Below are positions 2,215-3,152 of a stretch of DNA of 64,000 bases, one piece after another. Source of the DNA: a virus (lineage: Duplodnaviria > Caudoviricetes); IMG/VR virus record IMGVR_UViG_2904200584_000016, positions 6,688-70,687 of that record; one strand, written 5' to 3'. The notes below the pieces were generated by a model. It did no database searches. It was not told the DNA's origin and saw nothing but the letters and a program-made list of their open reading frames with translations. Within the stretch, counting starts at the first letter, position 1. Every line of letters starts with the position of its first letter. Made by a program: the position numbers and the translations under genes.

Positions 2215-2512
2215 ATTTGCAAATTAGGCAGCCTTGTAGCTAACAATAGCTAATATAAGTTAACGCATTTAGCATTTATCAAGGATTTTCTATAACTTTT
2301 TTATTTTATTTTTACTATTTTAATAATTTAATCTTTTATCCTTGAGATTTTATATTTGAATTTTTAACTTTAAGCTTTATATCTATTGTTCTCTTTTATA
2401 CAGTACAATCGTTTCGTTTGTATGTACCCATCACTTTTATATAAGCAGTTTGATTTTTAACCCAAAATCAAATGGGAACTTATAATTTATGTTATTCACC
2501 TAACCTGCAAAT
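2215..2512 (-). ncRNA. Putative ~300-nt structured ncRNA downstream of the DUF6847-like gene
   Basis: 14-bp closing stem (2215-2228 with 2499-2512, two G-U pairs); internal helices 2449-2472, 2403-2427, 2279-2286/2338-2345, 2237-2252; no credible ORF. Confidence 0.6.
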
Positions 2513-2534
2513 TAAAAAATAGTCCAATTAAGGA

Positions 2535-3152
2535 CTATTTTAAATCTACATCTATAATTGTAAGTGCATTTGATGTACTTAATGCGAAATCAACTTCTTT
2601 TTCAAATTCTTCTATTTCATCCCTTAACTTTTCTATTTTCTCTCTTACTTTTAAAGGGTCTACTAAAGACCATTCCTGTTGTTTTTTATAAAATGAAATA
2701 AGTTCTGCTCCATCTTTACTTTTTTCTTTTTCCTCAAACATTTTGTCTGTATTTCTTTGCACTTCTTCATTTCTACGATTTACTTCAGACATCATACAAT
2801 CATAGTTACTAACCATTTGTCTCAATAAAGATTTATCTAATTCTATACTATTTTTTCTTTTTATTGCTTCTAAAACTGTATAATTTTTATTACCAATTTG
2901 AACATTTGTTATAGCATTAGAGATATTAATTGCTTTATCTAATGCATTATAATTATATATTAAATCTTCTATTTGCTGGTATTTACTTGAAACTTCTACA
3001 TTAAAATCTTCTACGCTTGTTTTTGTTTCATATACATTTTTATCAGAACCTTTTTTAGTACCTACAATTCTAAAATTATCAATACATCTGTCTATCTTAT
3101 CTTCTAACAATTTCTTTTCTGCTAAAGCTTTATGGACATTATATTTAACCAT
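2535..3152 (-). CDS. Coiled-coil protein, DIP1984/DUF6847-like
   Basis: Pattern HKALAEKKLL...AINISNAITNV...TVLEAIKRK...LVDPL...EVDFALSTSNALT recalled from this family. Confidence 0.6.
   Translation of the reverse strand: MVKYNVHKALAEKKLLEDKIDRCIDNFRIVGTKKGSDKNVYETKTSVEDFNVEVSSKYQQIEDLIYNYNALDKAINISNAITNVQIGNKNYTVLEAIKRKNSIELDKSLLRQMVSNYDCMMSEVNRRNEEVQRNTDKMFEEKEKSKDGAELISFYKKQQEWSLVDPLKVREKIEKLRDEIEEFEKEVDFALSTSNALTIIDVDLK

Follow-up and report, generated by a model that had tools for sequence, protein, structure and literature searches.

Several RNAs resemble, in part, the element described here. RAGATH-27 (RF03100) is an 86-nucleotide (nt) motif without an assigned function; its model has a single helix, and it is filed in Rfam as a small RNA (sRNA) gene. 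Species 1 and 2 of phage T4 are stable RNAs of unknown function from a phage transfer RNA (tRNA) region. ROOL and GOLLD are large, intricately folded, phage-borne RNAs whose function remains unexplained; they often lie beside tRNA genes (PMC9241854, in the part of its text available) and have been called RNA-only complexes in a cryo-electron microscopy paper (PMC12286853, likewise in its available part). Here we analyzed a 64,000-nt stretch of DNA (the window), positions 6,688 to 70,687 of the 70,687-base IMG/VR record IMGVR_UViG_2904200584_000016, and the window is a fragment of a phiCD211-like Clostridioides difficile phage. The RNA at 2510..2217 on its minus strand belongs to a widespread family of structured phage RNAs, 294–460 nt in length, within which it is compact and divergent; it lies directly downstream of a gene for a 205-amino acid (aa) protein of the PHROG 1491 family (2535..3152, minus strand).

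A first-pass annotation of the window, made from its letters alone, had proposed a conserved pair of a protein and a noncoding RNA, and distant relatives bore this out from both sides. A sequence-only profile recovered the 3' domain of the RNA in 64 of 65 regions downstream of protein homologues (locus L041 was missed, and the match in L031 was weak, E 0.011). The RNA copies start 5–55 nt after the stop codon of the PHROG-1491 gene, on the same strand and usually within a tRNA gene cluster. In the reverse test, a nucleotide pattern that covers just the 3' domain, and samples one subclade only, was run against IMG/VR and returned 25 stretches; the protein gene was found 267–390 nt upstream, on the same strand, in all 21 assessable genuine RNA matches. 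The remaining four stretches were set aside, L116 and L117 as chance matches in coding sequence without profile support, and L096 and L102 as having too little upstream DNA. The downstream gaps of 62 of the 65 loci joined one BLAST component, while the proteins are only ~35% identical. At least one tRNA was present in 45 of 64 distant loci (L028–L091) within the fetched 5.6 kb or less, often 40–97 nt before the gene, and the next same-strand open reading frame (ORF) or tRNA usually follows the gene after a gap of some 350–550 nt. In four annotated phages, 396–1233 nt are left unannotated after the gene, with tRNAs nearby. Phage T5 (AY692264.1) also carries the pair, with a 17-base pair (bp) closing helix, a pseudoknot and the helix P5 all readable in an RNA at ~3144–3500 of our T5 locus (L094), which corresponds to ~34,933–35,289 on the complement strand of the record; the homologue occupies 2501–3133 of the locus. 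Neither the homologue nor the RNA is annotated in that record, where the gene is instead overlain by T5p083, an ORF on the opposite strand (2477–3274 of the same locus).

The family has a constant architecture. From 5' to 3' it comprises a 13-bp closing helix (P1), a junction G-AAAAC, an H-type pseudoknot, variable hairpins, about seven 7-nt repeats led by AAR, a 3' domain, and the 3' strand of P1. The pseudoknot follows the junction in the layout A5'-UUUU-B5'-A3'-A-rich linker-B3', and the 3' domain consists of AAAAUCC, the 5-bp helix P5, a hairpin and GGCU, after which the 3' strand of P1 begins at once. Covarying structure downstream of the homologues was found by our own pair count against shuffles in 43 sequences aligned with MAFFT: across six helices, 88.9% of cells were paired, versus 62.6% in shuffles (0/500) and 33–50% when partners were slid, and 36 of 39 pairs carried changes on both sides. 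Three rows in which P1 was not anchored (10/13 pairs; L033, L065 and L082) were left out of this count, as were the near-duplicates L088, L074, L087, L043, L039 and L089, and L002 was replaced by the window. By helix, paired cells amounted to 98.4% for P1, 99.1% for P5, 86.1% for pseudoknot stem A, 72.0% for stem B and 84.5% for P6; all 13 pairs of P1 and all 14 pairs of the two pseudoknot stems have changed on both sides.

Individual elements were equally regular. Among 52 unique RNAs, P1 pairs at 13 of 13 positions in 40, 12 in 8, 11 in 1 and 10 in 3, always ungapped. P5 joins AAAAUC-CNNNG to CNNNG-GCUG over a distance of 46–50 nt and occurs in at least 14 different complementary versions. 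G-U pairs are frequent (e.g., in 24 of 43 sequences at one P1 pair), which fixes the strand of the structure as that of the gene and speaks for RNA rather than DNA. The repeats have the consensus AAAGNUY, with about seven per RNA; the longest run at period 7 averaged 4.6 over the 52 RNAs, compared to 2.2–2.4 at periods 5, 6, 8 and 9, and runs of at least seven were present in 18 of the 52, whereas shuffles averaged ~1.9 and never exceeded 5.

The window RNA belongs to this family by its closing helix, its 3' domain, its heptad array and the PHROG-1491 gene directly upstream. It is 294 nt from the 5' to the 3' strand of P1 (2217..2510; this and the following features are on the minus strand), as delimited by P1 pairing, alignment, profile and fold, and no copy seen is shorter. 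Gene and P1 share a strand, the former ending at 2535 and the latter starting at 2510, and no ORF of note occurs on the strand of the element. The 42 other sequences, combined into a profile, gave one significant match in the 64-kb window, 2408..2219, with an E-value of 3.2e-13 that carries a high composition bias from the A-rich region; a 3'-domain profile built without the window matched it at 2298..2217 (E 7.7e-4). A structured RNA of about 300 nt after the gene had been predicted, and the 299-nt element does fold better than all 200 shuffles (z −3.94, 0/200 as good), while the opposite strand reaches z −2.79 and is 11 kcal/mol weaker.

The P1 strands UUGCAGGUUAGGU (2498..2510) and GCCUAAUUUGCAA (2217..2229, directly after GGCU) form 13 of 13 pairs; this pairing and the heptad run were measured on the near-identical locus L002, and the P1 letters were read from the window. 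The junction, G-AAUAAC (2491..2497), is the counterpart of the family's invariant G (G18 in the alignment) and AAAAC. A proposed H-type pseudoknot follows (2449..2476): its stem B, UUUGAUUUU/AAAAUCAAA (2472..2464 with 2457..2449), is present in the minimum free energy (MFE) fold, and its putative stem A, the 4-bp CCCA/UGGG (2476..2473 with 2464..2461), was assigned by inspection. The variable middle region holds a hairpin, GUACA.../...UGUAC (2403..2427), which appears in the folds and ends in a conserved ACUGU aligned by the family profile; one of its pairs is broken in one relative. Eight consecutive 7-nt units (2323..2378), a run of eight at period 7, read AAAGCUU AAAGUUA AAAAUUC AAAUAUA AAAUCUC AAGGAUA AAAGAUU AAAUUAU. 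The 3' domain, AAAGUUAUAGAAAAUCC...GGCU (2230..2298), is delimited by the family profile match and contains P5, CCUUG/CAAGG (2284..2280 with 2236..2232). Upstream of P1, a terminator scan located a terminator-like hairpin with a U-run that overlaps the stop codon of the gene (2516..2541); phage ES-S-0107-01 has a compensatory change in it, from AGTCC/GGACT to AGCCT/AGGCT, and it is probably a leaky terminator or an mRNA-end hairpin.

The structure drawn in the first-pass annotation agrees with the family at its outer edge and departs from it inside. Its outer stem, AUUUGCAGGUUAGG/CCUAAUUUGCAAAU (2512..2499 and 2227..2214), is in the sequence and in the MFE fold, and it is P1 placed 2 nt further out. 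The hairpins UUUGAUUUU/AAAAUCAAA, GUACA/UGUAC and UAGCUA/UAGCUA are likewise all present, and the MFE fold reproduces that model. However, the CCCAU/AUGGG pairing, which does exist in the sequence, competes with the family-supported pseudoknot stem CCCA/UGGG, and the close clade provides no informative variation at this stem. The helix UCAAGGAU/AUCCUUGA, thought to enclose an A-rich loop, does not hold in the family, where 62.7% of cells were paired versus 61.0% after shuffling; the AUCCUUG within it pairs downstream with CAAGG instead, and the 3' arm of the helix is part of P5. The A-rich stretch itself is real, but it is the array of eight AAR-led units rather than a loop. Thus, two or three of the inner helices in the earlier model differ from the conserved ones, and the inner structure needs correction.

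RAGATH-27 passes its threshold in a single relative. Its whole model coincides with the first 86 nt of the RNA in locus L079 at 88 bits (threshold 76.1); L062 (62.5 bits), L067 (56.6), L076 (53.1) and L052 (43.6) stay below the threshold. The one helix of the model is pseudoknot stem B of the PHROG-1491-associated RNA, its GAAAAC and AAACUAUAA stretches resemble GAAUAAC-AUAAAUUAUAA of the window, and its first 13 nt, modelled as unpaired, are here the 5' strand of P1, whose partner lies 280–440 nt downstream. The window RNA gives no match to RAGATH-27 in 1900..3700 even at E ≤ 10, and none occurs at the gathering threshold in the whole window. The model does not detect the copies of T5, My1, 949, BM15 or D-1873 either, and no Rfam family matched the heptad array and 3' domain of the relatives. 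At the gathering threshold, Rfam found nothing in the gaps of the window and 20 loci, a set that does not include L079. An Rfam search, as first suggested for this locus, leaves the window RNA itself without a match and places one relative, over its first 86 nt, in a known family. Two of the loci contain a Drum RNA (RF02958) above the Rfam threshold (L052, 15–125; L028, 3853–3960). In phage D-1873 the Drum RNA lies ~770 nt beyond the homologue, in a 1233-nt unannotated stretch that also holds the PHROG-1491-associated RNA. In L046, 46 nt just past the RNA (3585–3630) show a weak likeness to positions 1098–1143 of bacterial 23S rRNA, below the threshold (26.4 bits, E 4e-4).

In the literature searched, we found no description of the full RNA, its partner gene or the tRNA-cluster setting. 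No paper was found under the name RAGATH-27 in a search of texts without their supplements, where an original description or a longer form could stand. The main text of Weinberg 2017 does not contain the term RAGATH (PMC5737381), and a RAGATH paper (PMC13346280) concerns RAGATH-18. About 8,500 short phage RNA candidates, which could include a short motif overlapping the 3' domain, are, according to the available part of the paper, listed only in its supplements (PMC10690425); a 2026 Minerva preprint is, as far as its available text goes, about other RNAs. The Rfam models of ROOL and GOLLD match neither the window nor the RNAs of its relatives. Compared to these two, the PHROG-1491-associated RNA is smaller (294–460 nt), carries a heptad array and has an obligate protein-gene neighbor. 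Long noncoding RNAs that lie beside tRNAs in phage K, described in the available part of PMC9241854, are unrelated, with no protein or RNA profile match. T5 rna2 and RNAIV are also stable non-tRNA RNAs of a phage tRNA cluster without an assigned function, annotated ~2 kb from the T5 copy of the pair, but they are other loci, 103–125 nt in length.

The protein gene, which had been noted ahead of the RNA, is confirmed as a 205-aa ORF at 2535..3152 from the ORF list and its PHROG match, and so are the 369 nt that separate it from the next ORF. Its product aligns full-length with phrog_1491 (E 1.7e-71, residues 1–203 on profile positions 2–210 of 211), and homologues occur in 738 phage records, including T5-like, Felix-O1-like, Bastille-like Bacillus and Lactococcus 949-like phages. 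A profile search of 1.84 billion cluster representatives puts the family at 3387 representatives at 50% clustering; among the matches listed are close full-length relatives only, which has no bearing on a link to DUF6847. Searches of Pfam, NCBIfam and PADLOC matched the window protein to no family. The gene had been called DUF6847-like, and that name did not hold: the window protein has no Pfam match to DUF6847 (PF20935) at E ≤ 0.1, and one of 20 homologues matches it at E 0.01, below the cut-off. Together with a weak PDB match (3kdq, E 0.11) and the nearest labelled Atlas cluster (DUF6847, score 0.87, with the label on 16% of its members), this makes DUF6847 a faint lead and not a finding. 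Two invariant SNAxT motifs, at residues 78–82 and 194–198, suggest an internal duplication or two equivalent binding sites. PHROG 1491 is widely labelled 'tail fiber protein' in RefSeq phage records. This label is probably an annotation error, since the protein, at ~205 aa, is encoded among early-type genes in tRNA clusters and lacks a tail-fiber domain.

The left end of the window is 95–98% identical to C. difficile phages phiCD211, phiCDIF1296T, AR1086-1, LIBA6276 and LIBA2945. On the minus strand, the order is a sigma factor, an HU-like protein (3358..3636), a tRNA-like piece, the 205-aa gene, the 369-nt gap, a 62-aa gene (phrog_21503, 1977..2165) and a calcineurin-like exonuclease. The 62-aa gene lies outside the conserved pair and is kept in relatives without it. 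At the end of the sigma-factor-like protein (phrog_5767, 3770–5212), a cysteine-rich tail gives weak matches of the HNH, endonuclease VII and Stc1-like kinds. A tRNA remnant had been placed just upstream of the gene, and alignment with relatives confirms a 5'-truncated tRNA-Ser pseudogene (3208..3273) of which the 3' 66 nt remain, the acceptor 5' strand and D arm having been replaced by upstream sequence; ARAGORN found no tRNA gene in the window and no complete cloverleaf at the remnant. Relatives have an intact tRNA-Ser 56 nt upstream of the gene, frequently accompanied by another tRNA (Met, Ile or Thr). Relative to phiCD211, ~503 nt have been deleted between two GATAG microhomologies in the window interval 3153–3357, a loss that took away upstream sequence together with 25 nt from the 5' end of tRNA-Ser. 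No tRNA is present at this site in LIBA6276 and three IMG/VR relatives either.

Within the C. difficile phages, the tRNA or tRNAs, gene and RNA behave as a single cassette, since they are gained and lost together. In phage ES-S-0173-01, tRNA, gene and gap are missing as one block whose edges are the HU stop codon and window position 2218, where homology resumes, and in pCD1602_4 a different, 260-aa ORF occupies the site (3000–3782 of locus L004). The right edge of the cassette is the end of the 3' strand of P1, that is, of the outer stem first drawn. The interval between the HU and 62-aa genes is a swap point, where ES-S-0173-01 has only ~90 nt (L005, 3316–3412). The 260-aa ORF of pCD1602_4 has weak similarity to REase_MTES_1575/DUF559-like endonucleases, below the cut-off (E 6.5e-5). 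Where present, the gap is kept at 95% identity or more in 23 of 23 related loci. Variable sites number 19–20 of 297 in the element versus 27 of 206 third-codon positions in the gene, a mild constraint at best within this clade.

We consider the best explanation, at a rough probability of 55%, to be that the RNA is a member of this family, co-transcribed with the protein, and that the two form a protein-RNA particle acting in trans. The RNA would be made on the transcript of the protein, often a tRNA-operon precursor. Co-transcription is inferred from the 5–55 nt between stop codon and P1, which leave no room for a promoter, from the tRNAs often found 40–97 nt before the gene, and from the tRNAs or terminator-like hairpins after P1; in Lactococcus phage 949 and Bacillus phage BM15, such hairpins with a T-run directly follow P1. 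Trimming by tRNA-processing enzymes is possible. Several copies of the largely helical protein would then attach to the heptad array, with the pseudoknot and 3' domain as a folded core, and the resulting particle may act during infection on translation, tRNA metabolism or host defence that targets tRNAs. TRAP and HutP are proteins that read evenly spaced short RNA repeats, with a 7-nt period in the sites of HutP. The seven or eight evenly spaced, purine-rich units here resemble such sites and suggest one protomer per unit, but the 205-aa protein has no sequence relation to either. Judged on sequence, the ribonucleoprotein reading of the pair, which the first-pass annotation also offered, is plausible.

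A more specific version of this proposal is quite improbable: that the RNA is the scaffold of a new phage ribonucleoprotein, in which each of seven or eight heptads seats one 205-aa protein or one tRNA anticodon loop, and that the particle shields or hijacks tRNAs or disarms tRNA-cleaving defences. The AAA and AAG that lead the heptads are also lysine codons. If this version were true, a multivalent particle made from tRNA-operon transcripts would be common to T5-like, Felix-O1-like, Bastille-like, 949-like and clostridial phages.

Several points weigh against the co-transcribed particle or the structure behind it. The 14 sequences of the phiCD211 clade contain no compensatory change among 80 MFE pairs; 8 pairs differ on one side, and 7 are disrupted in at least one relative. 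With identities of 95% or more, this set is too shallow to either support or refute the structure. The P1 offsets are the best of 110 positions and carry a selection bias. The constant abutment of P1 on GAAAAC is an independent check on the chosen offset: its 5' strand adjoins G and an A-rich run in all 49 RNAs with at least 11 of 13 pairs. Of the 43 aligned sequences, 30 had been chosen by a perfect P5 complement, a selection bias as well, and the sequence-only profile was therefore built as a held-out test; in 12 distinct sequences not picked for pairing, P5 forms five of five pairs in nine and four of five in three. The 5' domain of the window RNA is reached neither by the family profile nor by RAGATH-27, and its pseudoknot was assigned by topology and inspection. 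Finally, the terminator-like hairpin between gene and RNA in the window phage would limit read-through. RNA-labelled sequencing runs of two studies (X1–X4 and X5–X7) contained, as contigs, 34–57% of sampled words of window positions 1700–3700; they are uninformative on the transcribed part and were counted as no evidence.

The same tight spacing could instead reflect a cis-acting 3' untranslated region (UTR), in which a folded cap and a protein-binding array control the stability or translation of their own mRNA as autoregulation, with no role in trans. The element always starts 5–55 nt after the stop codon on the same strand without room for a promoter of its own, and given the terminator-like hairpins after P1 in 949 and BM15, gene and RNA could be one mRNA. 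However, 300–460 nt with a pseudoknot and a conserved junction would be lavish for a 205-aa gene, the nucleotide conservation of the RNA exceeds that of the 35%-identical protein, and RAGATH-27 is filed as an sRNA gene. Moreover, hairpins or terminators split gene from RNA in the window phage and in My1. On balance, we regard regulation in cis as possible but unlikely. Phage tRNA clusters counter tRNA-cleaving defences, and a phage pseudo-ToxI RNA neutralizes ToxN, so that there are precedents for an RNA that works independently of the protein, as a decoy or sponge for a host RNA-binding protein, ribonuclease or tRNA-targeting nuclease, or by holding anticodon loops on its AAR units, the protein being merely co-inherited. 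Its placement in tRNA clusters and its multivalent single-stranded repeat array are compatible with such an activity. We nevertheless find it rather unlikely, as a near-absolute linkage, with order and spacing that stay fixed across T5-like, Felix-O1-like, Bastille-like, 949-like and clostridial phages, is difficult to account for unless gene and RNA are functionally connected.

The remaining two explanations fare much worse. A type III toxin-antitoxin (TA)-like system, in which the protein is a toxin held by a repeat RNA, had been raised in the first-pass annotation, and the pair recalls it in that a terminator-like hairpin separates a protein gene from an adjacent RNA with repeats. Known systems of this type (ToxIN) have ~36-nt repeats and an RNA ahead of the toxin gene. 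Here, the repeats are 7 nt rather than 34–45 nt and follow the gene; upstream of it, no tandem 34–45-nt repeats were found, and Tandem Repeats Finder (TRF) reported weak period-8 and period-14 arrays downstream only. The protein matches no ToxN, AbiQ, CptN or TenpN-type nuclease and no Pfam, NCBIfam or PADLOC model, the RNA has a large non-repeat folded core, and the pair occurs in strictly lytic phages such as T5. The TA-like reading is therefore very improbable. Scarcely credible is an element acting at the level of DNA, such as a miniature inverted-repeat transposon or an origin with iterons, or chance inverted repeats in an AT-rich spacer. The 14-nt imperfect terminal inverted repeats, the AT-rich repeats, an end that is also an indel boundary and the lack of compensatory change in the close clade would all suit it; but the helices keep their pairing through strand-specific G-U, and the covariation spans phages of Gram-positive and Gram-negative hosts at a fixed position relative to one gene. 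A miniature inverted-repeat transposon was rejected, as several copies per genome were not found: the element is present once in the 70,687-base record, which is only ~53% complete.

Collectively, these results indicate that the 86 nt of RAGATH-27 form the 5' terminus of a far longer RNA, closed and multi-domain, which has a fixed protein partner, and that the window RNA is a divergent member of a class catalogued only as a fragment. The partner family comprises 3387 cluster representatives and has no Pfam domain, and the pair is consistently housed in phage tRNA clusters. Because the pair also occurs in T5, a model phage in which the RNA carries no annotation, its function can be addressed directly in a laboratory system, with genetic and biochemical tests. 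For large folded phage RNAs such as ROOL and GOLLD, which still lack a functional explanation, an RNA that has an obligate protein partner provides a point of entry.

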